DNA from: a virus
Taxonomy: Duplodnaviria > Caudoviricetes
Virus record (IMG/VR): IMGVR_UViG_3300029258_001781
Location: 1-53,009 of that record
Length of the DNA: 53,009 nt
Strand: one strand, 5' to 3'
The stretch's first letter is position 1; each line of letters begins with the position of its first letter. The position numbers were made by a program, and so were the translations under genes. The notes below the pieces were generated by a model that saw only the letters and a program-made list of their open reading frames with translations, was not told the DNA's origin and searched no databases. Positions 7,575 through 31,228 of this stretch are shown here, piece after piece.

Positions 7575-7625
7575 GACTCGCTCCTATCCGGAGCACACGA
7601 TACCGCAAACACCCGTTGGCGTCAA

Positions 7626-12539: not shown

Positions 12540-12912
12540 CCGTCTGTTCCTCCGCTTCCTTGGCCGCGCACAGAATATTCAAAAATTCTCTTGGTAGTTC
12601 GGTCGGTATGCTGATCTTTCTGACCGCTCTTTCTATCAGTAACAACGATTCGAGCCGACAAAACCACCGCTCGGCCAGCGCGAGGGTGGCGTCGGCTGAG
12701 GTGGCGTACTTCGATAACCCTGCGATAGTTTTCCAAGCATCTTCTTCTGTGAAGTGGCCGCATTTGTACAACGCAACTCCCATCCTTTCAGGCTGCCTGA
12801 CAAGCCATCGATATGGAGTCCTATCACCCTTCAGGCACTCAACCATCCACCCGTCCCGCTCCGCCGCCCAGCGGGTGATCTCCGCGTCGGGCATTTGCTC
12901 GAAGTTGGTCAT
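12532..12912 (-). CDS. Phage ABA-sandwich-like protein
   Basis: EITRWAAERDGW...YATSADATLALAE...PREFL pattern. Confidence 0.55.
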   Translation of the reverse strand: MTNFEQMPDAEITRWAAERDGWMVECLKGDRTPYRWLVRQPERMGVALYKCGHFTEEDAWKTIAGLSKYATSADATLALAERWFCRLESLLLIERAVRKISIPTELPREFLNILCAAKEAEEQTDG

Positions 12913-13124
12913 GGTTTATAGCTTCCGTCATAGTTTCCGTGCACAGTAGATATAATCGACATGGGTCCAGCTTGATCACGAGGTGGCATATCGGAAAAAC
13001 ACCTACACTTAGAACATTTACCCCCGACAAGCGTGCTTGTTCCTTCGATCCAAGTAGGCGGCCCCCAATGAATGCCACAGGCAAGCCTCACGAAACGTAC
13101 TGGACCATCATTTTTCCCCATCAT
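12909..13124 (-). CDS. Small Cys-rich hypothetical protein
   Basis: LACGIHW...CSKC; coupled to neighbours. Confidence 0.5.
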   Translation of the reverse strand: MMGKNDGPVRFVRLACGIHWGPPTWIEGTSTLVGGKCSKCRCFSDMPPRDQAGPMSIISTVHGNYDGSYKP

Positions 13125-16493: not shown

Positions 16494-16539
16494 CGAAATA
16501 CCCTTTCTGGTTTTCCTTGTGAAGACTTGCACTAGGGTA

Positions 16540-16965
16540 TCAGTCTTCACTCCTCCTGTCAACCCCCAGATCATACCCCACCGAATGGTCAATGTAGACA
16601 TGGTGGTAGCGATTCCGATCTACAATCCGACCAGCGCCGGCGTAGTCGTAATACACCGGATCCTTGACCCCGTCTTCCCCGAACCCGAAAAGAGTGAAAC
16701 GGCTCCGCCTCACCTGCTCCCATAGGTTGCGGCCATGAGCTTGCGTCCGACCCACGATCAGCACGCGCTCCCCCGCCAACGGCTCCGTCGCCGCTGCAAG
16801 GCACATCTGAGTCGTCAAGCCCCTGCCACGCAGCGCACCCCTCGCATACACCAAGTCGACCCCTGGGCTCTCCTCCTCTCGCCATGCCTGACAAAAAGCA
16901 CGCCACGCCCGAACAAAACGCCATTTCGAACTCGGACCAAGATCCTGACCACTATTCACTCGCAT
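16540..16965 (-). CDS. Hypothetical protein with a P-loop-like segment; first gene of the leftward arm
   Basis: GAGGAAGG RBS; RGRGLTT...RVLIVG. Confidence 0.55.
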   Translation of the reverse strand: MRVNSGQDLGPSSKWRFVRAWRAFCQAWREEESPGVDLVYARGALRGRGLTTQMCLAAATEPLAGERVLIVGRTQAHGRNLWEQVRRSRFTLFGFGEDGVKDPVYYDYAGAGRIVDRNRYHHVYIDHSVGYDLGVDRRSED

Positions 16966-16999
16966 ACATCCTTCCTCTCGCTGTTGATTTTTGAGACTT

Positions 17000-17028
17000 A
17001 CACTACTCTATCAGTCCTCGCCGGAAAA
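17000..17028 (-). promoter_or_regulatory. Putative leftward sigma70-type promoter
   Basis: Extended -10 TGnTAGAGT, or TTTTCC-17bp-TAGTGT, upstream of 16965. Confidence 0.4.
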
Positions 17029-17124
17029 TACAGCACATTTTTTAAGGGGGGGCGATCAACAATCCGCGAGCCCGCAGCTTCCCCCTCCCCCTGGGCCTTC
17101 GCATCGTGGCGTTTGGCTGGTGAT

Positions 17125-17170
17125 GGCTGGGGCTGGGCTCCGCCGGGGCTGGGGCTGGGGCTGCGTGGGG
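17125..17170 (+). repeat. GGGGCT-type tandem G-tracts (G-quadruplex-prone)
   Basis: Six G3-G4 runs within ~45 bp. Confidence 0.7.
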
Positions 17171-17385
17171 CTCGCCTTGCTTCCTCCTTCCTTGCTCCTT
17201 CGAAGCGGGCCGCGCGCCGGGCTCCGTTTCATAGCGTCCGATAATAGACAAACTGTTACTTTCCGGACGGGGGGCGCATCTCCTTACAGGCCAAGGGGAT
17301 ACGCTGCGCGATCGGGTGCTATGCCGAATTATTGCAGGGCGCGCAAGGGGCCAAACGGGGCCAGATCGCTATATGTTGGGGTGCA

Positions 17386-17844
17386 TCAGTCCACAGAGCG
17401 CGCAGCAATGGCGGCCACCATAGCGCGATCGTGCTGGCGCTGCGCTTCGGCTATGGCGGCGCGGCTGTCTGGGCGATAGCTGGAGTAGCGCACGCCAACC
17501 CACGTAAGGCCGGAGACGCGCGCCGCGTCCAAGGGCCCAATATGGCGCAGACTGTGCGCTAGTGTCCGCCGCTGCACCTTGGACAGGTGGAAGAAATGCG
17601 GGGGGTCGTGCTTGGAGAGCAATCGTCTGGGGTCACGGATGGCGGCTTGCAGGGCTCTGATAGCGTCGTCTCTGGAGCGTATCACGGGCATTCCTTCGGG
17701 TGTGCCGGGTGTTGGCATAGGATCATGAGCTTCGAAGACGTGACAGGGCCCAGAGATGGCCGCAAAGGGAGATCTCCGGAATCGGGAGGGGTGCGGAGTA
17801 GAGCATGCGGCAGTGTGGGGAATGGGGATCGGGGTGGTGTTCAT
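17386..17844 (-). CDS. Possible hypothetical protein
   Basis: ORF in the divergence region; start uncertain. Confidence 0.35.
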   Translation of the reverse strand: MNTTPIPIPHTAACSTPHPSRFRRSPFAAISGPCHVFEAHDPMPTPGTPEGMPVIRSRDDAIRALQAAIRDPRRLLSKHDPPHFFHLSKVQRRTLAHSLRHIGPLDAARVSGLTWVGVRYSSYRPDSRAAIAEAQRQHDRAMVAAIAARSVD

Positions 17845-17965
17845 GGTCTACGCGCCCGGGAAGAAGACTAGACGTTAACCCATAACCCTCTCTCCACTCT
17901 CTTAAGAGGGAGGATAGATCGGGGGGGTGTGTAGTGTCAAGGGGTGGGGGTGTGGTGTGTGGCAG

Positions 17966-18109
17966 GGCCGCAAAATGCGTCCCCAAGTGACAAAATTTGC
18001 CACAGGGCAAGAATCGTACCAATTGATCTCGTGTGTTAGGTGTGGGGTGTTAAGTGGTTTGTCTTCGGTGGTATGGCTTCATGTGGTGGTGATCTGGCAT
18101 GGTGCGTGC
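17966..18109 (+). promoter_or_regulatory. Putative sigma54 (-24/-12) promoter with tandem upstream palindromes
   Basis: TGGCAT-N5-GTGC at 18095-18109; palindromes GGCCGCA-AAA-TGCGTCC (17966-17982) and GTGACAAA-A-TTTGCCAC (17987-18003). Confidence 0.5.
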
Positions 18110-18199
18110 GTACCTATTGCGGCTTTGCTCTTTTCAAGTTGAATCGCTGCGAGGGTCATCACGACCGGGGGAAAGTCCCCGGCGAAAGGATGATCACCA

Positions 18200-19366
18200 A
18201 TGACAACTGATAGTCTTATGAATCAGGGCGTAGATATGACCGTTTCCCAGCAGTGGGCGAAGCGTCCCGACGATCAGCGGTTTCTTACGTTGGAAGCCTT
18301 ATATGAGGCTTGCGGCGAGAAGGCGCGCGGCAGTCGGGAGATTCGGGAATCGCTGCGGGATCTGTCTGTCACCCTGACCGAAGACGGCGACGATCTCCGT
18401 TTGGCATTGCCGACGGAGGATCAAGAATACGAATTCACAAACTACAGTTTCGGCAGTCTGTGCAGCCGGGTCAAGGCTCCTCGGGGATACTTCGCGGAGC
18501 AGCTCAGCGGAGCGCCTGAACTGGCGGCGGAGTGCTTGAACCATTCGATCCAGGTTGCGCCGGATGAGTCGATTATGCCCTACGTATACGAGAACGGACG
18601 CGCGGAGCTTCGCGCGGCCACGTCTCAGAAGTACGGCAGGATCTACGATGCCGACGTAGCGCGGGCCCTTGTTGAGATGAACAATCGGCAGGGGGGGATC
18701 TGGAAGGTTCCCGGCACGCTGGATTGGAGCACTGGCCAACACGACGCGGGGACGGCTGTCACGAAGGAAAGTACCACGCTATACGCGAGCGATCGCGATA
18801 TGTTCGCTTTTCTCTGTGACGACCAGCACCCGATCGAAGTGGGCAAGCTTCCCAACGGGGAACCCGATCTGATGTTCCGGGGCTTCTACGTCTGGAATTC
18901 GGAGACGGGGAATAGCTCTTTTGGCTTTTCTTCTATGTACATGCGCGCGGTGTGCGCTAACCGCATTCTCTGGGGTGTGGAAGGGAAGAAAGAGATCACG
19001 TTTCGGCACTCCAAAAACGCGCCGCATAAGTTTCTGCGCGAAGTCGCGCCGATGCTGCGCGATTTCACCCAGAACAATACGCACGCGGTAACGGCTGGCG
19101 TCATCGAAGCCAAGCGGGAAACGCTTCCCAAGGATCGGAAAGACGTCATCCACTGGATCGCCAAGAATGCCGGCGTCCCTCAGAACCGGGCGACGGCGGC
19201 GGTTAACGCGGTCTACCGCGAAGAGGGCCGCGCGTGCCGGTCGGTGTGGGACGTGGCGCAGGGCCTCACGGCTGTAGCGCGGCGCATCCCGCACCAGGAT
19301 CAGCGGATCACGCTGGAGCGTGCCGCTAAGAAACTGTTGGACAAGGCCGCGCCCGCGCTGGCGTAG
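18200..19366 (+). CDS. DUF932 (phage/plasmid TIGR03299-like) protein
   Basis: QWAKRPDDQRFLTL, LYASDRDMF, WNSETG, RAVCANRILWG, RHSK. Confidence 0.85.
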   Translation: MTTDSLMNQGVDMTVSQQWAKRPDDQRFLTLEALYEACGEKARGSREIRESLRDLSVTLTEDGDDLRLALPTEDQEYEFTNYSFGSLCSRVKAPRGYFAEQLSGAPELAAECLNHSIQVAPDESIMPYVYENGRAELRAATSQKYGRIYDADVARALVEMNNRQGGIWKVPGTLDWSTGQHDAGTAVTKESTTLYASDRDMFAFLCDDQHPIEVGKLPNGEPDLMFRGFYVWNSETGNSSFGFSSMYMRAVCANRILWGVEGKKEITFRHSKNAPHKFLREVAPMLRDFTQNNTHAVTAGVIEAKRETLPKDRKDVIHWIAKNAGVPQNRATAAVNAVYREEGRACRSVWDVAQGLTAVARRIPHQDQRITLERAAKKLLDKAAPALA

Positions 19367-19435
19367 CACACGACGACGAGAGCAAACCATAACCAGAAAC
19401 GACCCCCGCAGCGATTCAACCCCGTACCACGGGAC

Positions 19436-19465
19436 AAGCGCCCAGACACGAGTCCGGGCGTTTTT
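19436..19465 (+). terminator. Intrinsic terminator
   Basis: GCGCCC...GGGCG stem followed by TTTTT. Confidence 0.7.
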
Positions 19466-19509
19466 CTTGTGGCATAGGGCCGCAACCTTTACCCGATAAG
19501 GATCACCCC

Positions 19510-19815
19510 ATGAACCAGGAAACCACCACCAAGCGCGAACCCTTGGCCAGTTATTCGGCCATGGTGAACCGCGCCACCGAAGAAGCCGGGAAGGCGATCC
19601 GCGCTGCTATTCGGCGCGGCATGCGTCCCAAGGTGCATTTGTACTACGCCCCCGGCGATCTGCTTTGCACCGAAGACGAGCCCCCCGAAGGCTACAAGCT
19701 CGCCACCGCGCAGTGCGTGCCACACTGGCGCGGGCGCGAAACGTGGCGCGCTTGGATCACGATGGTGTCTCGCTCGCTTCCTTGCATGCTAACGGACGGA
19801 GGATCGGATCGATGA
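19510..19815 (+). CDS. Early hypothetical protein
   Basis: AAGGATC RBS. Confidence 0.65.
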   Translation: MNQETTTKREPLASYSAMVNRATEEAGKAIRAAIRRGMRPKVHLYYAPGDLLCTEDEPPEGYKLATAQCVPHWRGRETWRAWITMVSRSLPCMLTDGGSDR

Positions 19816-19997
19816 CAATGGCAGAGCATGATCTTTGGTATGAACGCGGGCGCGCTGCGTTCCGGGCCCGGCATGGGCACTACCCCGATCACCTGATACC
19901 GCCGGAGGATACGCCCGAGGCTGACGCATTCGGCGAAGGTTTCGCGGACGAACACAGCGACTACGCAAGCAGCCAGGCAATTACGACCGGCTTCTAG
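19812..19997 (+). CDS. Small Rmf/CrpP-like protein
   Basis: WYERGRAAF...P...AFGEGF; ATGA overlap. Confidence 0.5.
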   Translation: MTMAEHDLWYERGRAAFRARHGHYPDHLIPPEDTPEADAFGEGFADEHSDYASSQAITTGF

Positions 19998-20080
19998 TGC
20001 CGCGCGCATCGGGCACGCTTTCGGGCGTGCCCCTTGCGGGCCGCATTGGGCGAGCCCACAAACCAGACAAGGATCAGACG

Positions 20081-20524
20081 ATGAGAACCTATCCCCTGAG
20101 AATCACCCAGGAGCAAGGCGAACACGCCGATCGGATCTATTCGGTGGCGTGCGCATGGGTTGGCCCCCCGGCGCGCGAATTCGATCGGGCTGAGTTGATG
20201 CGCGACTACGCGATCCAGACGATCCACGATATCCGCGACGCTGGCCACGCTGCGACGGTCTACTTTGACCCGTGGATCGACCTGCCCAACCAGATCGGGC
20301 CGGAGCTTCACCGCGCATGCTCGGACGATTGGCCCAGCGTACAGGCGCGGCGCGCGGTTGCGGAGTTGAACCGGATCGGGATGTTGCCCGGGGACGTTGA
20401 CCGCATCGCCGCCGCGCTGGCGATCGATCGGGTGTCGGACTTGCCCGCGCTTGTCCAGGTAGCGAACCGCTGCACGGCGGCGCTCTGCGCGCTGACCGAT
20501 CACGGGGATCTCGGGAATGGGTAG
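20081..20524 (+). CDS. Early hypothetical protein
   Basis: ACAAGGATC RBS. Confidence 0.65.
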   Translation: MRTYPLRITQEQGEHADRIYSVACAWVGPPAREFDRAELMRDYAIQTIHDIRDAGHAATVYFDPWIDLPNQIGPELHRACSDDWPSVQARRAVAELNRIGMLPGDVDRIAAALAIDRVSDLPALVQVANRCTAALCALTDHGDLGNG

Positions 20525-20741
20525 CCCGCGCGAACTGCAACCGGGCGATCAGGTGCATTTGTACGACTGGCCTTTGGACAGGATCGGCTTCATTGGGATC
20601 GCAACCATCCGCGAGCTGTACCCGCGCGAACGTGCGCCGCACCCGCTGCGCTTGGCGAAGGTTCACATCGAGGGCGACGGCGACGCGGTTACCTATGATC
20701 GCTACGTGGTCGGGTTTAATCGGGTCACCGATGGCCGCTAA
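20517..20741 (+). CDS. Early hypothetical protein (SH3-like beta barrel?)
   Basis: LQPGDQVHLY...IGIATI. Confidence 0.6.
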   Translation: MGSPRELQPGDQVHLYDWPLDRIGFIGIATIRELYPRERAPHPLRLAKVHIEGDGDAVTYDRYVVGFNRVTDGR

Positions 20742-20955
20742 CGGAGCATACACGCGACTAGAAGATCTCGCGGCTCGCGTGCGGGCTGCGGGGTTTATTT
20801 TGGAGACTGACGGCGCGGGATCGAATTGGCGCGGGTGCATTTACCCCGCTGGCGACGACTTCGCCGACCCCGTGATCGAAGTGACAGGAACAACGCGGCT
20901 CCGGGCTCAGTTGCTCGCATGCCGTGAGTTTATCAACCAGAGGAACGAACCATGA
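20731..20955 (+). CDS. Early hypothetical protein
   Basis: Coupled to neighbours. Confidence 0.55.
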   Translation: MAANGAYTRLEDLAARVRAAGFILETDGAGSNWRGCIYPAGDDFADPVIEVTGTTRLRAQLLACREFINQRNEP

Positions 20956-21257
20956 TCGCAATTGAAACCAGATACCACGGAGCAACGAACACAAAGCCAT
21001 CAAGCGTAACGGCGCGGACCCACGACGGACACAAAATCCGCCTGACTTGGGATACCGACGTAGACGCCTACGATATGCACGCGCGCGCGGCGCTGGCGCT
21101 CTGTCACAAATTGGGCTGGACGCCCAAAGGCAAGCACGGCGGAAAGCACATGCACACGCTACAGGGTGCGGGCACGCGGGCCGGTTACGTGTTCGCGTTC
21201 ATTGACGAGGATTACCAGATCAAGATCACGGAGGCGGAAGCATGCAATACACAGTAA
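20952..21257 (+). CDS. Early hypothetical protein (MIAIETRYHGATNTK-type)
   Basis: GAGGA RBS; N-terminal motif common in phage early regions. Confidence 0.7.
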   Translation: MIAIETRYHGATNTKPSSVTARTHDGHKIRLTWDTDVDAYDMHARAALALCHKLGWTPKGKHGGKHMHTLQGAGTRAGYVFAFIDEDYQIKITEAEACNTQ

Positions 21258-21742
21258 CGGCAGACCACGCCCCCGCAACCGTGCCCACGCCCTACCGGGT
21301 GCGCTACCAGGACGGATCGACCGTAGCGCATTGCCAGCAACCGCAAGAAGCGCAACGGATCGCGGATTGCCTGAACGCTTGCGCGGGGATGGATGACCCG
21401 GCAGCGGAGATCGCGCGGATGCGAGACGTACTCGAAAGCGTAGCGGCAGGCAATACCGAGATCGCGGCGCTGGAAGAAGCAGCCCGCGCCGCGCTCAGGG
21501 AGTCCAGCACCGAGCCCGCCTCCACCGAATACCGCATCATCGGCTATTACGAGGACAACGGGCAGCGCTACGATCACACCCAGGCGGGCGAGAATTGGCA
21601 GGACGCGCTACAGATTCTCGCGGAAGGTGACATAGACGCGGACGCACTTTGGATCGTTTCGATCCTGCATGCGGGCACCGGGGACGCCGTAGATATTGGG
21701 ATCGGAGAAGCAACGATCGCGGATCTGTTGGGCGAAGTCTAG
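21242..21742 (+). CDS. Early hypothetical protein
   Basis: GGAGG RBS; AQRIADCLNACAG motif. Confidence 0.65.
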   Translation: MQYTVTADHAPATVPTPYRVRYQDGSTVAHCQQPQEAQRIADCLNACAGMDDPAAEIARMRDVLESVAAGNTEIAALEEAARAALRESSTEPASTEYRIIGYYEDNGQRYDHTQAGENWQDALQILAEGDIDADALWIVSILHAGTGDAVDIGIGEATIADLLGEV

Positions 21743-21834
21743 CCCGTGCCCCCACATTAGGCGCGGGGCTCCGGCTCCGCGCCCTTTGTGGCGGCATGAG
21801 TCGCCGAAACCAGAACCAACCAGGAGATCGGATA

Positions 21835-22350
21835 ATGGAATTAGTCGAAGTATGGGAGCCCGGCAACGGGCTGCGCTACGAGCTGATGCTACAGCACATC
21901 CAGAACGAAACCCCGAATGATATTTACGGCGATTGGAAAATGGAAAACCGTCATATCGGCGGGATCACCGTGGCACTGAGTGCAAGCGATCAGTTTGTGC
22001 AGAGCGCAGAAACTACGCACTGGCGGCACTGCGACACGACGCCGGCGCAGCTTGCGAGGGAATACGCCGCCCGAGGAATGGATCGCCCTGATTCAACCGC
22101 ATATCAACACCTGAGAGCACAGCTCCGTGACGCGATACTGGGCGACAGCTTGCACGTGGTGTTCCGCGTATCATGGGGGAATATCACGCTGGCGGAGGAT
22201 TCCATCGGCACGTGCACGGAGTATCTCGGCAATCACGAGGAAGCCGCGCGCGAAGTTATGGCGGATTATTTCGACGTGTTCGAGCTCACGGCGGAGGCTT
22301 TGCGCCATGCGCGGACATACGCCGATGAACTTGACCAGATCGCAGCCTAA
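21835..22350 (+). CDS. Early hypothetical protein
   Basis: AGGAGATCGG RBS. Confidence 0.6.
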   Translation: MELVEVWEPGNGLRYELMLQHIQNETPNDIYGDWKMENRHIGGITVALSASDQFVQSAETTHWRHCDTTPAQLAREYAARGMDRPDSTAYQHLRAQLRDAILGDSLHVVFRVSWGNITLAEDSIGTCTEYLGNHEEAAREVMADYFDVFELTAEALRHARTYADELDQIAA

Positions 22351-22492
22351 CGAGCCCGGGCCCGGGGTGCGTGCCCCGGGCCCATGGAGGAAACCATGCG
22401 CCGCTTTGCTCCTTGGGTGGCGGTCGGGCTCGCCCTTTACCAACTGAGCCGGATCGTTTACCTTGTCATCACCACCAAATGAGGATCAGACC

Positions 22493-22642
22493 ATGAACAA
22501 CGCTATTGCAACGCTTGCCGGGATACTCGCCCGCAATGCCAACCCGGACAGCCCGCTGTACTGCCAGCTCCGCCGCATCGAGATCGACGCCATCGCGGAC
22601 GCCATCGGACACTTGAGCCCATGCGCGGAGGATCGGTCATGA
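22493..22642 (+). CDS. 49-aa early peptide
   Basis: GAGGATCAG RBS; ATGA overlap with the next gene. Confidence 0.55.
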   Translation: MNNAIATLAGILARNANPDSPLYCQLRRIEIDAIADAIGHLSPCAEDRS

Positions 22643-22866
22643 GCTACACCCCGTCCTACCGCCACAAAAGCCGCCCGGTATCGGAGGCCGCCGTACTTGA
22701 ACACGCGCTAGACCTGCATCACCTAGACCAAATGATCCAAGTACGCGAAGCGCACCGCGATCAAGTTCCCCCGGAAATGCTAGAGAAATTCGACCGCGTA
22801 ACCGAAGCGCTTGAAATGGCACACGCGGCACTGGAACGCGAGCAGGTGGCCCCATGTTACAACTGA
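22639..22866 (+). CDS. Early hypothetical protein
   Basis: GAGGATCGG RBS. Confidence 0.55.
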   Translation: MSYTPSYRHKSRPVSEAAVLEHALDLHHLDQMIQVREAHRDQVPPEMLEKFDRVTEALEMAHAALEREQVAPCYN

Positions 22867-23384
22867 TTTTCGGCATGGACCCCGGGAAGTCGGGCGCGAT
22901 CGCTTGGGCAACCAACGACGGTCGGCACGGACACACCAAGATGCCGGCGGACAGCCGCGCACTGCTGGAGTATTTGCGCGCTATCCGCTTCGAGATTGCG
23001 CCGGATGAGTCATTTGCATTCATTGAGCACGTCGGTGGGCTGTTCATCGGCAATATCGCCAAGAAGCAGATACACCAACTCACCAAGGGCGACGCCAAAA
23101 CCCTGATGAACGCGCTGCAACGATCGAGCGCCAACTTGTCGCTGCGCGAAAATCTGGGCGAGCTGCGCATGGGCTGCACCGCATGTGGGATCACCGTAGC
23201 CAAGGAGCCGCGGCCGCAACACTGGATGAAGCGCTTGGATCTGGCGCAGACAGACTCCGCCAAGCGCAAGACGGAGATTTACGAGCGCATGCAACAACAG
23301 TTTCCGGACTGGAAGTTTCCCAAGTACGCCGCCGATGCTGTCGCTCTGGTCGACTACGGCCAGACGTGGTTGCGCGACAAATGA
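22854..23384 (+). CDS. RuvC-like Holliday junction resolvase
   Basis: IFGMDPGKSGAIA, AFIEHV, PQHWMK, ADAVAL. Confidence 0.85.
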   Translation: MLQLIFGMDPGKSGAIAWATNDGRHGHTKMPADSRALLEYLRAIRFEIAPDESFAFIEHVGGLFIGNIAKKQIHQLTKGDAKTLMNALQRSSANLSLRENLGELRMGCTACGITVAKEPRPQHWMKRLDLAQTDSAKRKTEIYERMQQQFPDWKFPKYAADAVALVDYGQTWLRDK

Positions 23385-23569
23385 AGCGGCGTAGTTGCCC
23401 GACGTGCGGAAGCCGTAGCGTTTCTACGATCCACGACGGCGCTGAGTGCGAGAATCCGCCAGCACCGGGCGAACCGGAATGGGAGCGCGAGTGGAGCCCG
23501 TTCTACGAACACATTTGTGCCCGGTGCGGTGCTGAGTGGTTCACCCTTATCGAACTGGAGCGCTGGTGA
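23381..23569 (+). CDS. Zinc-ribbon protein
   Basis: CPTCGS...CARCGAEW; ATGA overlap. Confidence 0.65.
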   Translation: MKRRSCPTCGSRSVSTIHDGAECENPPAPGEPEWEREWSPFYEHICARCGAEWFTLIELERW

Positions 23570-23581
23570 ATACGACACCAC

Positions 23582-23610
23582 TTGACACCAGGCGACAAGT
23601 CATGTAATCT
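23582..23610 (+). promoter_or_regulatory. Strong sigma70-type promoter P1
   Basis: TTGACA-17 bp-TAATCT. Confidence 0.8.
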
Positions 23611-23616
23611 CCGAGC

Positions 23617-23702
23617 TACTTGCAGCGCCGATCCTTGTCAGATCGAGCTTCTCATACTAGGCCGCGCCCCTTTTCTGGTTTGGGGGCGCGGTCGCTGCTT
23701 TT
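23617..23702 (+). ncRNA. Putative ~85-nt small RNA
   Basis: Lies between P1 and a GC hairpin (23660-23693) plus TTTT; closing stem GCAGCG/CGCTGC; CGATC/GATCG hairpin with CUUGUCA loop; no ATG-started ORF. Confidence 0.6.
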
Positions 23703-23711
23703 ACGGGGCAC

Positions 23712-23740
23712 TTGACGACGCAGTTGCCCGATGCTACGAT
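23712..23740 (+). promoter_or_regulatory. sigma70-type promoter P2
   Basis: TTGACG-17 bp-TACGAT with extended -10 TG. Confidence 0.75.
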
Positions 23741-23746
23741 ACGCGC

Positions 23747-24295
23747 CAGTATGAAAGCTTCCCACAGACAACAAGGATCGTCCCGCGCCCACGGCTTTCA
23801 GGCGCGTCGTTGCTCGATCCAAGCCCCGGGGCGGCCAGGGATAAGCTGGAACCAGACGTGTACCCGCCACGGCCAAGCACCTGCGATTTCGACACGGGGC
23901 TCTAAGCAGAGAATCGGGCAACGAGGACTTTCACCCGCAAATGGAGCCCGAGTGATCGGGCTGGAAGGTATCGCGCACCAGAGAAAGCGCGCGAAGGAAG
24001 CTCCCCTAGTCTGGTCGCTAAACACAGTCTGATCTAAACCGGATCGAGGGACTGTCTACTGGGTGGTGAATAACTGACCAGAAGGGAGCGGGTGCATCTT
24101 ACTGCGAACGCGGACCCCAGATCCACCCTGCACCACGGCAGGTAGTACATCGGCCGTCAGGGCCGTTCCGAGACTCGACCCAGCCCTCGCCGTGACAATT
24201 CTTGCATAGGAGTTTCGGTGCCGTGCCCTTTACGGCGCCCGGTCGAGCTGCTGGCTTGATGGGTGTCATCGGCTGCATGTCTCGTAACTCCAGTC
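23747..24295 (+). ncRNA. Putative large (~550 nt) structured non-coding RNA
   Basis: Downstream of P2; many nested helices; no credible ORF. Confidence 0.5.
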
Positions 24296-24303
24296 GTTTA
24301 GTG

Positions 24304-24321
24304 CTGATACCAGTGTATCAG
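24304..24321. promoter_or_regulatory. Palindromic operator candidate CTGATAC-CAGT-GTATCAG
   Basis: Perfect 7-bp inverted repeat ~35 bp upstream of the XRE gene promoter. Confidence 0.55.
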
Positions 24322-24354
24322 GACTCCATGCGTATCGCCACCTGAACACCAGGG

Positions 24355-24383
24355 TTGACTTTCTGATAGCAGAGTGCTAGTCT
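24355..24383 (+). promoter_or_regulatory. sigma70-type promoter P3
   Basis: TTGACT-17 bp-TAGTCT with extended -10 TG. Confidence 0.75.
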
Positions 24384-24409
24384 CGTGGTTACAGCAAAGG
24401 AGTCACGAT

Positions 24410-24628
24410 ATGGCATTGTTGCTCGATGGAGAGAAGATCCGGAAACGCCGAGCCGAATTGCAAATTCGGCAACGCGACCTTGCCACGCCGCTCAACACGT
24501 CGGAGTCTTATGTCAGCCGGCTCGAGCGAAGCAAGACAGCTTCGAAGCCCGAAACCATTCGCGCGCTGTCGAAGACGTTGAAGTGCAAGCCGTCGGACCT
24601 GATGACCGAGGTCGACGAGGACGAATAG
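24410..24628 (+). CDS. XRE-family HTH transcription regulator (Cro-like)
   Basis: IRKRRAELQIRQRDLA...SESYVSRLER...LKCKPSDL; AAGGAG RBS. Confidence 0.9.
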   Translation: MALLLDGEKIRKRRAELQIRQRDLATPLNTSESYVSRLERSKTASKPETIRALSKTLKCKPSDLMTEVDEDE

Positions 24629-24712
24629 TTTTCCTCCCCCGAAGCGGGGCCGGCCGTTGCCCAACCACCCTCCCAGCGGCCGGCCCCCAGCCTTAATTGA
24701 ATCAGTTTTTAT

Positions 24713-25188
24713 GCCCAACCAAGCGCCCCTGAACTACCAGTCAAGCGGAGTCGTCACACTGCGGCTTTGGAGTGTGCCTCAAGGTTGGGCATGCCTTTGG
24801 TGGTGTGGCGCGCAGTGCTGACGAGCACGGGAGAGTATGCCAGCCCGGTAGCGCGGACCACCGCCATTACCTTATCTGGGTTCGCCCAGCGTGCCGTCCA
24901 AACCGAGCACCTAGATCGGCTGGTACATGGATAGCGGGGTTGCTCCCGCGAAGCCCAGCGGCACGAAATACATTTGAATCTTTTGGCGGGCAGTAATCAT
25001 CCGGCCAGTAGTGATCGTTTTCTAAGCGCTCTCCTACCGGGCAGTGACGTTGGTGAGAAACCAACTCCCGCCACTCTTTTGCGGTGCTCGACGAGCGTGT
25101 GCCTCAGTGCGTAATGGGATCGCGGCACAAGTAAGAGCCCTCACTGCCTGCCACCCTAGAGGAGCACAAGGCAATGGGGGCCACCGCA
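24713..25188 (+). ncRNA. Array of five tRNA-sized closed-stem RNAs (tRNA-like)
   Basis: Units 24713-24791, 24799-24866, 24878-24957, 24985-25073 and 25081-25188; each has paired ends plus a 3' A; U-rich spacers. Confidence 0.5.
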
Positions 25189-25300
25189 TTCGATTTGGTT
25201 GTCAATCTTCCCCTGGCAACCGTTCATGGCGGCCTGTTGTCGCCATGCCCCGGGTCGCCTGTATGCGGCCTAGGGGCACTTTTTGAACAAGGAGCACGAC

Positions 25301-26338
25301 ATGAGCAAAGGCAGGAAGCTGCGCAAGTATCCAGGCCCCGAAGGCCCAGAGTTTCGAGAGTTCGCGACCGAGAACGAATGGCTGGCGGGGCGCCGCGCGC
25401 GCATGCAGGCCAGTGAGATCGCCACGCTGTTCATCGACGAGATCGAGGAGCAGGGGCAGACCACGTATCACACCCCGTACACGCTGGCGCTGGAGAAGAT
25501 CGGTGCGACACAGAAGATTTTCACCGACCGGGAGAAGCAACGTAACTGGATCTCCCACCGCACCGAGGAAGTGATCGGCCAGTTCTGGCGCGAGTACGAC
25601 CCCTGCAAGAGCACTTGGCGCGCCGACCAGCACACTATCCTAGAGCGCCCGGAAATGCCCCACGTAGGCGCCACACTCGACTTCATGACGGTGATTCCGG
25701 ACGAGGGCGGTGCGATGCCGCTCGAATGCAAAGCCGCAGGCGAGTGGGGGCGCCGGGAGTGGCGGGATGGTGACGTGCCGCTCAAGTTTCAGGTACAGGC
25801 CAGCCTACAGATGGCGGTGACGGGCACCGATCGCGCGGTTGTATTCTGTCTCATTGGCGGCTACACCCCGAAGTGGACGATTATCGATCGCGACGAAGAC
25901 TTGATCAAGATCGCCATTGATCGCGCAACGGAGTTCATGGAAATGATCCGCGCCGGCAAACTTCCGCCGGTGGACGGTCGGGCTCTGACGTCGACCGTAC
26001 TGAACATGCTGCATCCAGACGACAACGGCCATTCCATCAGCCTGCCCAGTGACGCGGACGCATGGTTCGAATCATTGGACTTCCTCAAGTACAAGCGCAA
26101 CGAGGTCGAGCGCGAGGAAGAACGGCTCAAGCAGTCCGTGAAGGAGTGCATGGGCGAGAACACTTACGGTGAGACGGAGGATATCGAGTTCTCTTGGAAG
26201 ACCGAGGGCGGGAAGCCGCAATACCTGAAAGTCCCGTTGAACAACGCGAACGACCTTGTGGCGGCGGGCATCGAGTTCAAAACACATCTGTCGGCAAAGA
26301 AGCGAGTTCTGCGTCGTAAGGAAAAACCGAAAGGATAG
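25301..26338 (+). CDS. YqaJ/lambda-exonuclease family recombination nuclease
   Basis: EWLAGRR...ASEIA, GATLD, LECKA, QVQAS; AAGGAG RBS. Confidence 0.88.
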   Translation: MSKGRKLRKYPGPEGPEFREFATENEWLAGRRARMQASEIATLFIDEIEEQGQTTYHTPYTLALEKIGATQKIFTDREKQRNWISHRTEEVIGQFWREYDPCKSTWRADQHTILERPEMPHVGATLDFMTVIPDEGGAMPLECKAAGEWGRREWRDGDVPLKFQVQASLQMAVTGTDRAVVFCLIGGYTPKWTIIDRDEDLIKIAIDRATEFMEMIRAGKLPPVDGRALTSTVLNMLHPDDNGHSISLPSDADAWFESLDFLKYKRNEVEREEERLKQSVKECMGENTYGETEDIEFSWKTEGGKPQYLKVPLNNANDLVAAGIEFKTHLSAKKRVLRRKEKPKG

Positions 26339-26341
26339 GCC

Positions 26342-27502
26342 ATGGAGAACGACGATCAGCAAGCCTTGGAGGTACAAGCGACCGTACACCCGATTCAGGC
26401 AATGGAGCGGTCGCAGCTTGAGACTCAGATTGAGCTGGCCCATAAGTACCCGCGCGACGTGGCGAAGTGTTTGGACAACGCCAAGTCTCTCATCGAGATG
26501 GACCAGACCACCGCGCGCGAGGCGTTCTACAGTCTGGATCACTACGGCGGCGCCCCCGTGGTCGGCCCGAGTATCCGCATGGCCGAAATGCTGGCGTCGT
26601 CGTGGGGCCACATCACCTACGGATCGCGTCCGCTCGATATTGAGGATAAGGTCGTGCGCGCCCAGGGTGTCTGCTACGACTTCCAGACGAATACGCGCGT
26701 GGTGGTGGAGAAAACCCGGCCGATCGTGGACAAGCGTGGCGTGCGCTTCACCAAGGCGCACCTGATCAACAACGCCATGCTGGCGGCACAGGCGATCGCC
26801 GAGCGTGATGCTATCTTGAAGGTAATCCCGCGGGCCTACGCCAACAAGCTGATGGACGAAGCCATGGAGATCGCCAGCGGCAAAGGGTTGACCATGGGCG
26901 AGAAGGTGAACGCCGCGATTGCAGCGTTCGCCGACCTCGACGAGTCGATCACCGACAAGATGCTGTTCCTCGTGCTGGGCGTGCAGGACAAACGCTCTAT
27001 GACGATCGCCCATGTCACGCGGCTGCGTACCATCTACAGCACGATTCGCGAGGGGCACGCGACCATTCACGACTACCTCATGCAAGACCCGGGCGAAGAA
27101 GATGGCGCGGCGAAGGAGTCGAAGAACAAGATGACCGAGGCGGCGAAGAAGGCGGAGGAAGCGAAGAAGGCGAAGAAGCCGCCGGCGGACAAGAAAAAGA
27201 AACCCGACCAGGAGCCCGAGCCGCCGGCCAAGGATCCGGAGCCCGAACCCGAGGAGAAGGAAGAGCCCCCCGAGCCGGAAGTCGAACCGGAGCCGGAGCA
27301 GGAGCCCGATGAAGACGGCGTCGTTGAAGAAGAGGCGCCGGATCGGGAGGCTTTGCTGATTGAGTGGGAAGAAGAGTCCGCGCCCCTGAGCAAGAAGGCG
27401 CGCATGCAAATCCTCGAAGACGTCGGCAGTCTCGACGGCGTTGCGGCCAACCTCGATGCTGACCAGCTTGCACAGGCGGTCAGTCTCGCAAAAGGAGATT
27501 AG
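26342..27502 (+). CDS. Putative single-strand annealing recombinase partner
   Basis: Follows the exonuclease; AHKYPRD, GPSIRMAE motifs; acidic Pro-rich C-terminus. Confidence 0.6.
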   Translation: MENDDQQALEVQATVHPIQAMERSQLETQIELAHKYPRDVAKCLDNAKSLIEMDQTTAREAFYSLDHYGGAPVVGPSIRMAEMLASSWGHITYGSRPLDIEDKVVRAQGVCYDFQTNTRVVVEKTRPIVDKRGVRFTKAHLINNAMLAAQAIAERDAILKVIPRAYANKLMDEAMEIASGKGLTMGEKVNAAIAAFADLDESITDKMLFLVLGVQDKRSMTIAHVTRLRTIYSTIREGHATIHDYLMQDPGEEDGAAKESKNKMTEAAKKAEEAKKAKKPPADKKKKPDQEPEPPAKDPEPEPEEKEEPPEPEVEPEPEQEPDEDGVVEEEAPDREALLIEWEEESAPLSKKARMQILEDVGSLDGVAANLDADQLAQAVSLAKGD

Positions 27503-27504
27503 CG

Positions 27505-28047
27505 TTGAAGTTTCGTAAGAAGCCGGTCGTAATTCATGCCGTTCAGTTCGACGGCAACAACCACGCCGAGGTCGTTGAGTTCTCGATGGCGAACGTATCG
27601 CACTCGGAACAAGACGGCAGCCTCACAATCGAAACGCTGGAAGGCACCCTCACGGTGTCGCCGGGTGACTGGGTCATTAAGGGGGTGAAGGGCGAGCACT
27701 ACCCCTGCAAGCCTGATATTTTCGAGCAAACCTACCAGCCCGCAGACTTGAGCATGAATTTCGGACAGGCCATTGAGGCACTCAAGAACGGCAACAAAGT
27801 CTGTCGTGCTGGCTGGAACGGCAAGGGCATGTGGATCGTGCTCATGCCTGCGTTGAGCCTGCCGCCGCATTCGTCGCAGGAGCCCGGAGCCAAGGTCAAC
27901 GACCGCACTGCCAAGCACATCGGCGAGGATACGCCGCTCGACTCGCAGCCGTACATCGCCATGTGGACCGCGCAGGGGCAGTGGCAGCCGGGATGGTTGG
28001 CGTCCCAGGCCGACATGCTCGCCGAGGACTGGCAGATCGCCGATTAA
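27505..28047 (+). CDS. Fusion of KKPVV/PGDW domain and DUF2829 (Tad2-like nucleotide sponge)
   Basis: N-term FRKKPVVIHAVQ...PGDWVIKG...YPCKPDIFEQTY; C-term MNFGQAIEALKNG.KV.RAGWNGKGM...WLASQADMLAEDW. Confidence 0.8.
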   Translation: MKFRKKPVVIHAVQFDGNNHAEVVEFSMANVSHSEQDGSLTIETLEGTLTVSPGDWVIKGVKGEHYPCKPDIFEQTYQPADLSMNFGQAIEALKNGNKVCRAGWNGKGMWIVLMPALSLPPHSSQEPGAKVNDRTAKHIGEDTPLDSQPYIAMWTAQGQWQPGWLASQADMLAEDWQIAD

Positions 28048-28075
28048 CGACACCACCAAACCGTAAGGACACAAC

Positions 28076-28534
28076 ATGCTCACCGAGATTTACGCAACCC
28101 TGGACAAACACGTGGCGTCGGCCAAGTCCGACAACATCGAAATCACCTGCACGATCCCGCATGAACTGGCAGTCGAAGAATTTCTGCTGCACATGCGGCA
28201 CAACAAGCACTACCTGCGCATGACCGACTTCGACCGCGGCAATGGCAAGACCAAGGAGTGGCCGGAGATTCTGGGCTCGATCAAGGGTCCGAAGTTTCCC
28301 GACAAGAACGACTCGCCGGGCTCGTTTGTCTTCGTCACCGAGTACAACATGGCCGTGCTCAAGGCTCTCGACTGGATTCGCAAGTGCGACCCGCGGCAGA
28401 TCCGTTTTGTCGATTCGCAGATGATGATTCCCAGCGACGACGATGACGAGCAGGAAGACGATCCGCAGACGGAGATCAGCACCGAGCCTGACGAGGGGTC
28501 GGAGCCCGAAGAAGAAGAAGAAGAAACCGAGTAG
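28076..28534 (+). CDS. Hypothetical protein with acidic tail
   Basis: AAGGA RBS. Confidence 0.7.
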   Translation: MLTEIYATLDKHVASAKSDNIEITCTIPHELAVEEFLLHMRHNKHYLRMTDFDRGNGKTKEWPEILGSIKGPKFPDKNDSPGSFVFVTEYNMAVLKALDWIRKCDPRQIRFVDSQMMIPSDDDDEQEDDPQTEISTEPDEGSEPEEEEEETE

Positions 28535-28553
28535 CCGGCGGCAATGGAAACCC

Positions 28554-28588
28554 AGCCCGCCCATGCTTCGGTGTGGGCGGGTTTTTTA
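28554..28588 (+). terminator. Intrinsic terminator
   Basis: GCCCGCCCATGC-TTCG-GTGTGGGCGGG followed by T7. Confidence 0.9.
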
Positions 28589-28603
28589 TGAAAGGACGGC
28601 GCT

Positions 28604-28843
28604 ATGAACGTCGACTTGTTGAAAATGACTGCGCTTGCCGACAGCATCTACTCGACGAAACTTTCGGGCCTACATTCGAGCGAGCAGTTCTTGGTGATCG
28701 AAATGCTGAAAGCGAAGTGGGCCGAAACTCAAATTCGCCAGCACTGTATAGCGGCGGTGGCGCGAGTAGAGCCCGCATTGATAGATGAGATCACGGAAAA
28801 AGTAACTGAAAAGCTGGGTGACAAGAGGGAGCCGAGGTTTTGA
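28604..28843 (+). CDS. Hypothetical protein
   Basis: AAGGA RBS. Confidence 0.6.
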   Translation: MNVDLLKMTALADSIYSTKLSGLHSSEQFLVIEMLKAKWAETQIRQHCIAAVARVEPALIDEITEKVTEKLGDKREPRF

Positions 28844-29721
28844 GTAAGGACACGGCGATCGAGTGGTGCGATAGTTCCTGCAATCCACTGATGGGCTGCG
28901 AGGGCTGCGAGTTGTGGCATCCCGAGCGTGGCGGCACATGCTACGCGGCCGCATGGGTCGATCGGTACAAGGGCAGCAAGGGCTATCCCGACAACTTCGG
29001 CCAACCCCAGTGGTTCCCTGGCCGGGCGGAGCAGGCGGCGGACTGGAGCGACCTGACTGGCGAGAAGAGACCCGATAAGCCGTGGCTCAACGGCCGGCCG
29101 CGGCACATCTTCAACGTCGACATGGGGGATCTGTTCTCCAAGCAGATCGCTTTCGAGGACATACTGACCCACGCATGGGAACCCATGATGAGCATTCCGG
29201 GGCGCCGGCACGTGTGGCTGGTGCTGACGAAGCGCCCCCGTCGCGCGGTCGAGTACGAGGAGTGGCAGCGCTGGACGAGGGCGATCGTGCGGCCGCGCAA
29301 CGTCATGCTGATGGTAAGCATCACCGACCAGAACAGCGTCAAGCGGCTCGACCCGTTGGCGAAACTGGACCCGGCCATCCCGATCGGCGCCAGCATCGAG
29401 CCCTTGCTTGGCCCGGTAAACCTGTTTCCTGCCCTCTCACAGTTCGATCGCGACCCACCGCTGGACTGGGTAATCGTTGGGGGCGAGTCTGGCCCTGACA
29501 GGCGCCCCATGCAACCCGACTGGGTCCGCCTGATTCGGGACCAGTGCCAACAGTGGGGCATCCCGTTCTTCTACAAGCAGCGCGTGACTTCGAAGGGAAA
29601 GGATCACGTGCCGGAAATCGACGGGCGGCAGTGGGTCGAGATGCCAAACATCGGGGCATCACCGCTTGGCCCGCGGCCGTACATGGGTAAACATGGCTGG
29701 TGCCAGGAGGTAGCGACGTGA
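28840..29721 (+). CDS. DUF5131 / phage Gp37Gp68 family protein (radical-SAM-like)
   Basis: TAIEWCD...GC..C...CYA, DMGDLF, LTKRP, SIEPLLG, WVIVGGESG, PFFYKQ. Confidence 0.9.
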   Translation: MSKDTAIEWCDSSCNPLMGCEGCELWHPERGGTCYAAAWVDRYKGSKGYPDNFGQPQWFPGRAEQAADWSDLTGEKRPDKPWLNGRPRHIFNVDMGDLFSKQIAFEDILTHAWEPMMSIPGRRHVWLVLTKRPRRAVEYEEWQRWTRAIVRPRNVMLMVSITDQNSVKRLDPLAKLDPAIPIGASIEPLLGPVNLFPALSQFDRDPPLDWVIVGGESGPDRRPMQPDWVRLIRDQCQQWGIPFFYKQRVTSKGKDHVPEIDGRQWVEMPNIGASPLGPRPYMGKHGWCQEVAT

Positions 29722-29876
29722 ACCTTGAGCCCCAAGTCGACAATCGCGTCCCGGAAAACTGTGTCCTGATCATCGGCGCCAACGAAACCGCGGTGCTCCT
29801 GCACATGCCTTCTGGCACCATATTCACTTACGATCACGGTGCTGTTTCCGTGACAGTATCACAGGACTCTTGCTGA
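29718..29876 (+). CDS. 52-aa hypothetical protein
   Basis: AGGAGG RBS, GTGA overlap. Confidence 0.45.
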   Translation: MNLEPQVDNRVPENCVLIIGANETAVLLHMPSGTIFTYDHGAVSVTVSQDSC

Positions 29877-29898
29877 CTGATTCGGGATCGTGTACGCT
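29870..29898 (+). promoter_or_regulatory. Possible sigma70-type promoter P4
   Basis: TTGCTG-17 bp-TACGCT upstream of the lipoprotein gene. Confidence 0.5.
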
Positions 29899-29926
29899 GT
29901 GGGGCATCACCAACAGGAGACGACCC

Positions 29927-30442
29927 ATGCGAATGATGATTGCTTTTACCGCCCTCACCCTTCTCGCCGGCTGCGCGTCCATCCCAGGCGGCATGCTGGC
30001 CCAGTCCCGCATCAGCATCTCCACCGACGTCGTCAAGGTCGACGGCACGAAGGAAAAGACCAAGGTCAAAGCCCAAGGCGAGGCCGCGCAAACGGTCAAC
30101 ATTGAGCGCCAGGGCGAAGCGTATAGCCCGGACGCGGTGCAGGATGGGCACGGCAACGTCTGGCCAGACAGCCCGTCCATGCTTTCCGTGAACAGCGACC
30201 ACAGCGTTCAGACCCCATGGGCGATGGAGGTTGCTAGTGGCTTGCGTGTCGCTCTTGAACAGACCCCCGAAACGGTTGGCCAACTCATGCAGGGCATCAC
30301 GGCTATCAATTCGCTGCCCGACAGCGCTGTGCCGGTGCCCAACTTCCGCGAGATGTTGATACGCGGTCTGGTCGAGCGCTTTCTTGGACGCTTCGCCGGT
30401 GACGATGCGCCCGACCTTGATTTGTCCTCACTCCTCCCGTAA
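29927..30442 (+). CDS. Lipoprotein
   Basis: Signal peptide with lipobox LAGC; AGGAG RBS. Confidence 0.8.
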   Translation: MRMMIAFTALTLLAGCASIPGGMLAQSRISISTDVVKVDGTKEKTKVKAQGEAAQTVNIERQGEAYSPDAVQDGHGNVWPDSPSMLSVNSDHSVQTPWAMEVASGLRVALEQTPETVGQLMQGITAINSLPDSAVPVPNFREMLIRGLVERFLGRFAGDDAPDLDLSSLLP

Positions 30443-30449
30443 CGCAATC

Positions 30450-30896
30450 ATGGATTGGTTTACCAACTACGGGGCGTATCAAACCCTGCTCCACTGCTTG
30501 GGCGGCGATGTTGGGTGGATTGCCGCTCTGGTCGTGTTCAGCTTTACCAACTGCATCGGCTACCTGATGATCGCGGCCCATTGGCGCGGTCTGGCGGCGA
30601 CGATCTCAGACCATGATTTGAAGAAAGACGTGAGCAGGCTGATGTTTATTTTCGCGTTCTGTGGTCTGACGTACCTCTGGGTCATTGTCGATCTGGTGTG
30701 GCCAGGCTGGAGAGCCTACATCCTGTTCGTGCTGCTTCCCCTCAACTTCTTCACCTGGCGGTTTTATGGGGGCGCCAGCGCGTTCCAAGGCTTACGGGAT
30801 TCATCGAATCGACATGAAGCACGGAGCAAACAACTGGCGGAGTTGGAGTCGCAACTAGCGGAGCTACAGAGCATGCGCAACAGGAGGGGGCATTGA
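30450..30896 (+). CDS. 3-TM membrane protein (ethylene-receptor-like TM domain plus coiled coil)
   Basis: IGYLMI and FIFAFCGLTY helices. Confidence 0.65.
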   Translation: MDWFTNYGAYQTLLHCLGGDVGWIAALVVFSFTNCIGYLMIAAHWRGLAATISDHDLKKDVSRLMFIFAFCGLTYLWVIVDLVWPGWRAYILFVLLPLNFFTWRFYGGASAFQGLRDSSNRHEARSKQLAELESQLAELQSMRNRRGH

Positions 30897-31228
30897 TGGA
30901 TGAGCATGGCGGCTATGACGCGCTTTGGCGAATACTAGGAATCGTTCAGTGGGTTTTGGTCGTCGCCATTGTCCCGTCCGGTCTGTTCATCGTTCGCCTA
31001 TGGTCGGACCTTCGCCAGCTACAGGGAAAGGTCGGAGCAATGGAGCATGATCACACGTCAGCATTAGCACTTGCCAAGAACATATCGAGCTTGACCGTAG
31101 AGTTGAAGCACGATCGCGAACAGCTCAAGCGCCAAGAACTCGCTCTCGATAAAATGTACGACGAGGTCAAGACCATAAAAGAAAGGGTCATCAGGCTCGA
31201 CGAGCGCGATCAGTTGCGCAAGGACTAG
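30896..31228 (+). CDS. Single-TM coiled-coil protein (holin/spanin-like)
   Basis: N-terminal TM plus heptads; GGAGG RBS. Confidence 0.6.
   Translation: MDEHGGYDALWRILGIVQWVLVVAIVPSGLFIVRLWSDLRQLQGKVGAMEHDHTSALALAKNISSLTVELKHDREQLKRQELALDKMYDEVKTIKERVIRLDERDQLRKD

Follow-up and report, generated by a model that had tools for sequence, protein, structure and literature searches.

The window analysed here is the whole of IMG/VR record IMGVR_UViG_3300029258_001781, the complete genome of an uncultivated phage (Caudoviricetes). It is 53,009 bp long, carries direct terminal repeats, and has a G+C content of 59.8%. Near-identical DNA was found in sediment and seawater metagenome runs from eight studies, and the phage is isolated, its closest RecE-like relative outside its own cluster being 33% identical. 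From ~18,200 to 31,228 its genes all lie on the plus strand. Inside this block, a simple gene call leaves 840 nt (23570–24409) without a typical gene, between genes for a RuvC-like resolvase and a small Zn-ribbon protein on one side and a gene for a Cro/CI-type helix-turn-helix (HTH) regulator on the other (Table 1). An initial annotation had assigned 23712–24300 of this spacer to a large, highly structured non-coding RNA of ~550 nt, transcribed from its own promoter and complementary near its 5′ end to the seed of an upstream small RNA. We conclude, with moderate confidence, that the spacer is not one large folded RNA and that an ordinary phage control region is the better reading of it.

Probable promoters and a minus-strand gene in the spacer

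The promoter proposed for the large RNA, TTGACG-17-TACGAT, was located at 23712–23740 and proved to be a member of a motif that is enriched in the genome. The pattern TTGAC-N18-TANNNT matches the genome five times, compared with 0.34 expected (~15-fold), and none of 100 shuffles reached five matches. Three of these five sites fall in the spacer, all on the plus strand (beginning at 23582, 23712, and 24355, and referred to here as P1, P2, and P3), and four of the five are intergenic and clearly point at a unit downstream. In a distant phage, the 17-kb viral record G001, the motif is likewise enriched (three matches vs. 0.24 expected). P2 has the properties of a sigma-70-type promoter, with recognizable hexamers, a 17-nt spacing, membership of the enriched motif, and a position ahead of transcription units. 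Because the motif is enriched genome-wide and its sites are placed ahead of units, P2 is probably a real promoter, and from the spacing its transcript would start near 23747–23748.

Under the rule of our scan there were no terminator-like sites in 22500–25500 on either strand, and no intrinsic terminator was seen between P2 and the HTH gene. Read-through from P2 into 24410–24628 is therefore the simplest outcome. TTGAATC boxes were not enriched (10 vs. 6.3 expected).

Facing P2 on the minus strand is an open reading frame (ORF), 24099–24278, which on the strength of its motifs and relatives we take to be a real small gene. It encodes 59 amino acids and is preceded by a ribosome site, GGAG, at 24288–24291, 9 nt ahead of the ATG. 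When all six frames of the genome were searched for CxxCxGxG, two motifs were found and both lie within this ORF; simulated genomes held 0.61 single motifs on average, and the double motif occurred in none of 400. A phmmer search of the protein against 1.84 billion representatives returned three relatives at E ≤ 0.001. The best (E 4.3e-7) is a 209-amino-acid protein composed of the same repeat, the second a 56-amino-acid protein with 46% identity in which residues 8–53 align to residues 8–53 (E 1.7e-4), and the third has an E-value of 5.2e-4. The protein resembles the DnaJ-type zinc fingers of Pfam DnaJ_CXXCXGXG (PF00684) in having two CxxCxGxG knuckles ~12 residues apart, but differs from that family in scoring 18.6 bits (E 0.0022), which is under the gathering score of 32.7, and in having no J domain.

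Other searches with the 59-amino-acid ORF added little. A word-based protein homologue search gave no candidate, which is not proof that the protein stands alone; tblastn against phages gave only weak matches (E 0.1–0.6) to helicases and Zn-finger proteins, in regions rich in Cys; and among viral contigs a single locus (L001) matched over 13 residues, which we took as chance. The AlphaFold model, built from a three-row alignment, has a predicted local distance difference test (pLDDT) score of 50.3 and is too poor to use. Since a long imperfect hairpin (24000–24089) lies past the stop codon of this gene, with UUCCUU next on the minus strand, it may serve as the leftward terminator of the gene. 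A small zinc-finger gene such as this is of the kind that codon-based gene callers would miss.

Table 1. Coordinates of the features in and around the spacer, with related promoter-like sites elsewhere in the genome
Feature	Position	Strand	Remarks
Fourth promoter-motif site	7597–7625	−	Fills a 51-nt gap, then AGGAG and ATG
Fifth promoter-motif site	16534–16562	−	Annotation ambiguous there
RuvC-like resolvase gene	22854–23384	+	Upstream of spacer; PHROG 1770, E 1.1e-9
Small Zn-ribbon gene	23384–23569	+	Upstream of spacer; profile search
P1, TTGACA-17-TAATCT	23582–23610	+	Just past the Zn-ribbon gene stop; score 6+3 of 12; genome motif match
Compact structured element	23622–23702	+	Closing stem round two hairpins, then UUUU
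Seed CGAUCCUUGU	23629–23638	+	Small hairpin: 5′ stem half and five loop bases
P2, TTGACG-17-TACGAT	23712–23740	+	TG before −10; 9 of 12 plus TG; genome motif match
Open frame, 93 codons	23751–24032	+	ATG 3–4 nt after the predicted P2 start
Seed complement ACAAGGAUCG	23771–23780	+	~24–33 nt into the predicted P2 transcript
Long imperfect hairpin	24000–24089		z −1.91 on +, −1.97 on −
Gene for 59-amino-acid protein, two CxxCxGxGW zinc knuckles (DnaJ-type zinc finger)	24099–24278	−	phmmer, motif, Shine–Dalgarno sequence
Palindrome AGTGCTGATAC-cagt-GTATCAGGACT	24300–24325		Between the back-to-back Zn-finger and HTH genes; 11-nt arms, 91% complementary
P3, TTGACT-17-TAGTCT	24355–24383	+	26 nt before the HTH gene ATG, AGGAG between; genome motif match
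Cro/CI-type HTH regulator gene, 72 amino acids	24410–24628	+	Pfam HTH_3, E 3.2e-10; PHROG transcriptional repressor families, best E 2.7e-10
G+C-rich hairpin after HTH gene, terminator-like	24644–24691	+	Fold of 24630–24700: z −4.11, 0/200 shuffles as stable
Conserved non-coding element, candidate	24692–24866	+	Next spacer, same gene-poor stretch; likeness to G001 (its locus L003, 3955–4182, minus strand)
RecE-like exonuclease gene	25283–26338	+	Beyond the second gene-free stretch; PHROG 434, E 2.1e-47

Folding and coding signal of the proposed RNA

Every helix arm named in support of the large RNA was found by script where it had been placed, and each pair is exactly complementary. The stretch as a whole, in contrast, does not fold better than chance, and its description as highly structured did not hold. 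With dinucleotide shuffles as the baseline, the plus strand of 23745–24345 (601 nt) has a minimum free energy of −225.6 kcal/mol compared with −225.2 ± 6.4 kcal/mol for shuffled sequences (z −0.07), and 11 of 20 shuffles were as stable; the minus strand of the same 601 nt gave a z of −0.56. On the plus strand, 120-nt windows over 23680–23959, which cover the proposed RNA for its first ~250 nt, lie at or above the shuffle mean (z +0.17 to +1.62). Only two regions stood out among the 120-nt windows, 23600–23759 (z ~−3.2) and 24000–24119 (z −2.0 on the plus strand and −2.5 on the minus strand).

Searches for a family or for relatives were likewise negative. Rfam 15, run on the whole window at the gathering thresholds, gave no match, so no family was found for the proposed RNA, and when the threshold was relaxed to E ≤ 10 for 23400–24500 the sole match was to a miRNA model (E 5.3). 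A blastn search of 23570–24400 against 50,697 phage records found nothing, and no homologue of 23570–24409 was collected from phages, viral contigs, metagenome contigs, or the related record G001. A search for related loci with the neighboring RuvC-like protein among viral contigs gave no relative. GOLLD and ROOL are large phage or bacterial RNAs with Rfam families of their own. The proposed RNA is like them in its length class (hundreds of nt) and in its location in a phage genome, but unlike them it matches neither family at E ≤ 10, has no excess folding energy, and has no homologues. Their setting near tRNA genes, noted in the initial annotation, is also absent, as ARAGORN found neither a tRNA nor a tmRNA in the window. 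We considered and rejected a retron, a CRISPR-like array, a toxin–antitoxin repeat RNA, and a tmRNA: there are no repeats, ARAGORN made no call, and no reverse transcriptase was recognized among the annotated neighbors (not every gene is annotated).

A codon log-odds model trained on 13–14 long genes of the same phage scored no frame positive within 23570–24400, while the flanking genes were positive. The gene-free stretch is therefore real, and non-coding by the usual codon usage of the phage. The statement in the initial annotation that the stretch holds no credible protein was thus borne out by codon scores for the plus strand, but not for the minus strand, which carries the credible gene 24099–24278. 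That gene and its ribosome site together span 24099–24291, so that roughly one third of the proposed RNA is simply their antisense, which argues against a discrete large RNA.

Strain variation told us little. A variant strain present in three runs (X5, X9, and X10) diverges by ~7% across the RuvC-like gene (22763–23255), with 35 differences in a 493-nt contig, whereas 151-nt contigs over 23505–23655 and 23889–24039 show zero differences, and the variants are also identical in a contig over 25360–25722. A single spanning contig (X5 record 17) has 55 differences over 22400–24774, and the 39 that are listed all fall in 22600–23219. This pattern looks like a mosaic recombination boundary near 23220–23255 and is uninformative on constraint.

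A proposed compound control region and its rivals

A very stable fold lies just upstream of P2. In the compact element (23622–23698 plus UUUU), two hairpins sit inside a closing stem, one with the loop CUUGUCA (7 nt) and the other with a G+C-rich stem of 12 bp; the fold of 23612–23705 reaches −41.4 kcal/mol (z −4.14), with none of 200 shuffles as stable. The element could be a small RNA of ~85 nt made from P1, a terminator of the upstream operon, or both. The perfect 10-nt complementarity between 23629–23638 and 23771–23780, on which the link between the two RNAs had been based, was recovered in an inverted-repeat search (100%). A 10-nt complement to the 20-nt seed region occurred in 30 of 5000 shuffled 710-nt targets, a frequency to be read in the knowledge that the seed was chosen only once the complement was known, and two perfect 10-mer complements exist anywhere in the 840 nt, compared with 0.36 expected. 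The complementarity is therefore modestly unlikely by chance and is without comparative support, and we regard it as suggestive. When the hairpin seed was searched for RNA duplexes with the downstream sequence, shuffles scored equally well. The distant phage G001 also has a promoter-proximal hairpin with a CUUGU loop; its ~1 kb downstream of the hairpin contains no complement of at least 8 nt to the hairpin, and there is no ACAAGG in 1200 nt. A likeness between the P1 RNA and the 5′ end of the G001 non-coding region was not significant by blastn or nhmmer, and we treat it as an anecdote only. For RNA-based regulation in this phage lineage, which has hardly any characterized relatives, the 10-nt pairing offers a lead that could be tested at little cost.

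We propose that 23570–24409 is a compound early control region of the phage, with three rightward sigma-70-type promoters, and give this proposal about an even chance of being correct. P1 would make, or its transcripts would end in, the two-hairpin element, which would act as a small RNA and/or as the terminator of the RuvC-like and Zn-ribbon genes. P2 would give a transcript without above-chance structure, most likely a long leader running into the Cro-like HTH gene, of which P3 would be the proximal promoter. On its way, the P2 transcript would cross the leftward zinc-finger gene and its hairpin in antisense, and such convergent transcription may oppose expression of that gene. The short RNA may pair at about +24 to +33 of the P2 transcript and so tune it. 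Finally, the palindrome at 24300–24325 is likely an operator, judging from its place between the zinc-finger and HTH genes. Folded as RNA it gave a z of −3.29, and its half-sites showed no clustering. If the control-region proposal is true, its main value lies in annotation, which would gain three early promoters that share a clear consensus, a small gene for a zinc-finger protein, and a stable hairpin that is an RNA or a terminator.

Several observations weigh against this proposal. First, a promoter scan of 22500–25500 alone returned one site compared with 0.8 expected, so that it is the genome-wide motif that speaks for P2. Second, short inverted repeats are somewhat enriched. There are 136 perfect inverted 6-mers in 23570–24409, compared with 97 ± 13 in shuffles (reached in 1 of 300; p ~0.003), and 89 compared with 68.6 ± 11.3 when the upstream hairpin element is left out (23710–24409; reached in 5% of shuffles, p ~0.05). 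This mild enrichment leaves room for some RNA structure, and 11 of 63 genome windows of equal size hold at least 136. Third, the zinc-finger gene itself has a negative codon score (−0.145 bits/codon), so that further atypical small genes, 23751–24032 among them, cannot be firmly dismissed on codon usage. Fourth, upstream of the zinc-finger gene the minus strand showed no sigma-70-like promoter with a score of 8 or more out of 12.

Two known phage systems offer partial parallels. In the immI region of bacteriophage P1, c4, icd, and ant1/2 form one operon, and C4 RNA binds a downstream site and limits expression of the rest (PMC8198154). The locus described here is like immI of phages P1 and P7 in that a small hairpin RNA would lie upstream of, and on the same strand as, the transcript with which it pairs, in a phage regulatory region. 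It is unlike immI in that the target would be on a transcript with a separate promoter, with one 10-nt site, and in that no anti-repressor gene was recognized downstream. C4 RNA has an Rfam model, whereas the short RNA of the window matches no Rfam family. The second parallel is the face-to-face promoter switch pR/pL of coliphage 186. In our locus, too, transcription from P2 would run rightward against an oppositely oriented gene, next to which lie a Cro/CI-type HTH gene and an operator-like palindrome. Unlike in 186, a leftward promoter was not found, the overlap would be ~550 nt, and the leftward product is a 59-amino-acid zinc-finger protein rather than a CI-type repressor. By analogy, then, the control region somewhat resembles immI and the 186 switch and is a member of neither family.

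Of the other explanations, the one that fares best is the earlier view that P2 drives a new functional non-coding RNA some hundreds of nt long, whose end might be the 24000–24089 hairpin; this RNA would be the target or sponge of the P1 hairpin RNA in a C4-like switch. It draws on the probable reality of P2, on a plus strand that has no coding signal and whose ORF has no homologue, on a 10-nt complement that lies in the hairpin of a very stable element and is seldom equalled by shuffles, and on the mild excess of inverted 6-mers. However, the folding energy is at chance over 23680–23999, neither an Rfam match nor a homologue was found, the seed region was picked after the complement had been seen, G001 shares the CUUGU-loop hairpin but neither a complement nor ACAAGG, and the right-hand third of the RNA would be antisense to a protein gene. 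We therefore consider it rather unlikely. Also unlikely is a stronger version of our own scheme, in which the P1 hairpin RNA and the P2 transcript would constitute an RNA–RNA switch, the small RNA pairing at the 5′ end with a long RNA, non-coding or antisense, which in turn silences the zinc-finger gene and feeds the Cro-like regulator. Were it true, it would represent immunity logic like that of C4 or CI RNA, assembled from unrelated parts in a deep-branching uncultivated phage, and, taken with the conserved element at 24692–24866 discussed below, it would make 23570–25282 an RNA-rich control module.

A quite improbable alternative is that P2 makes a nearly leaderless mRNA for a basic protein of 93 amino acids, 23751–24032, with the short RNA blocking translation over codons 7–10. 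The ATG at 23751 does sit 3–4 nt past the predicted P2 start, the frame is open for 93 codons, and the neighboring gene 24099–24278 is likewise atypical in codon usage. However, the ORF scores −0.25 bits/codon, and its G+C content at third codon positions is 0.60 compared with 0.75 for genes. ORFs of 75–107 codons are open in four of the six frames and overlap in 23798–23905 (23582–23905 and 23712–24032 on the plus strand; 23652–23921 and 23798–24025 on the minus strand), so an ORF here is expected by chance. The longer form of the frame, 23712–24032, matched nothing in Pfam or PHROG and found no relatives among viral contigs or metagenome contigs, and a word-based protein homologue search with 23751–24032 gave no candidate, which is not proof that the protein stands alone. 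Atlas recognition of the ORF (1086; best score 0.76) was within the range of shuffled sequences, and its AlphaFold model from a single sequence (pLDDT 52.2) is weak evidence and too poor to use. We conclude that 23751–24032 is probably not a gene.

Very improbable, finally, is a ColE1-like replication origin, with the P2 RNA as primer or activator transcript and the short RNA as its regulator. An extended non-coding stretch that carries promoters does lie in an early-gene block beside the RuvC-like resolvase and RecE-like exonuclease genes, but there are no iterons (the direct repeats are only two-copy chance matches), no A+T-rich tract (G+C 0.53–0.63 in 200-nt windows), and no Rfam match, plasmid RNAs included. 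ColE1 RNAI is transcribed opposite RNAII and is fully complementary to it. The likeness consists of a short hairpin RNA whose loop has its complement near the 5′ end of a longer RNA; the RNAI/RNAII logic suggested in the initial annotation fails in that the short RNA here is on the same strand, 130 nt upstream, and complementary over 10 nt rather than being a full antisense.

A conserved element downstream and other observations

Beyond the HTH gene lies a second gene-free stretch, 24629–25282 (654 nt), in which no frame has a coding signal. Within it, a segment of 34 nt (24745–24778) reappears, together with the sequence around it, at ~86% identity in further contigs from the same metagenome runs, and a pattern scan with the element found G001. 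Compared with the window, G001 is 81% identical over ~125 nt (24697–24820) and 95% identical over 22 nt (24843–24864), while the two records recognizably share only two proteins, at identities of 31% and 43%. The element has indels of 1 and 2 nt, which rule out a shared reading frame. RNAalifold, applied to the two sequences, predicted 41 pairs, two of them with compensatory changes, and an 11-bp helix, UAUGCCCAACC/GGUUGGGCAUG, has one C-G to U-A change. Rfam gave no match for 24692–24866. Among viral contigs, both a 25-mer of the element and its helix pattern were found in the G001 locus (L003) only; the helix pattern gave two chance matches, apparently coding, among genome contigs. A 20-mer searched against metagenome contigs found the L003 record and two coding-looking loci that share the 20-mer alone and are unlike the element on either side of it; judging from a motif, these two may be glycogen phosphorylase genes. 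We regard 24692–24866 as a candidate new structured RNA or DNA site and as the best RNA candidate in the area, two sequences being too few for a claim. For RNA discovery it appears more promising than the spacer with which we began.

Next after the conserved element in G001 comes a tRNA-like gene of 148 nt (L003 3795–3942, minus strand). Its acceptor, D, and T arms match the Rfam tRNA model at 33.7 bits (gathering score 29), and it has 89 nt in the anticodon/variable region, where the model has 18; ARAGORN makes no call.

Elsewhere in the window, three further gaps are without a codon-typical gene: 12540–13120 (581 nt), 16995–17385 (391 nt), and 17533–18217 (685 nt), the last of which coincides with the switch from minus-strand to plus-strand genes. 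A single ORF of 2,760 amino acids, by far the largest gene of the phage, occupies 31225–39507 on the minus strand. Lastly, a plus-strand gene at 27505–28047 encodes a protein of 180 amino acids in which a domain like Tad2 (Thoeris anti-defence 2) was recognized at E 3.4e-27; the N-terminal half of the protein matches PHROGs that include a nucleotide pyrophosphohydrolase family.

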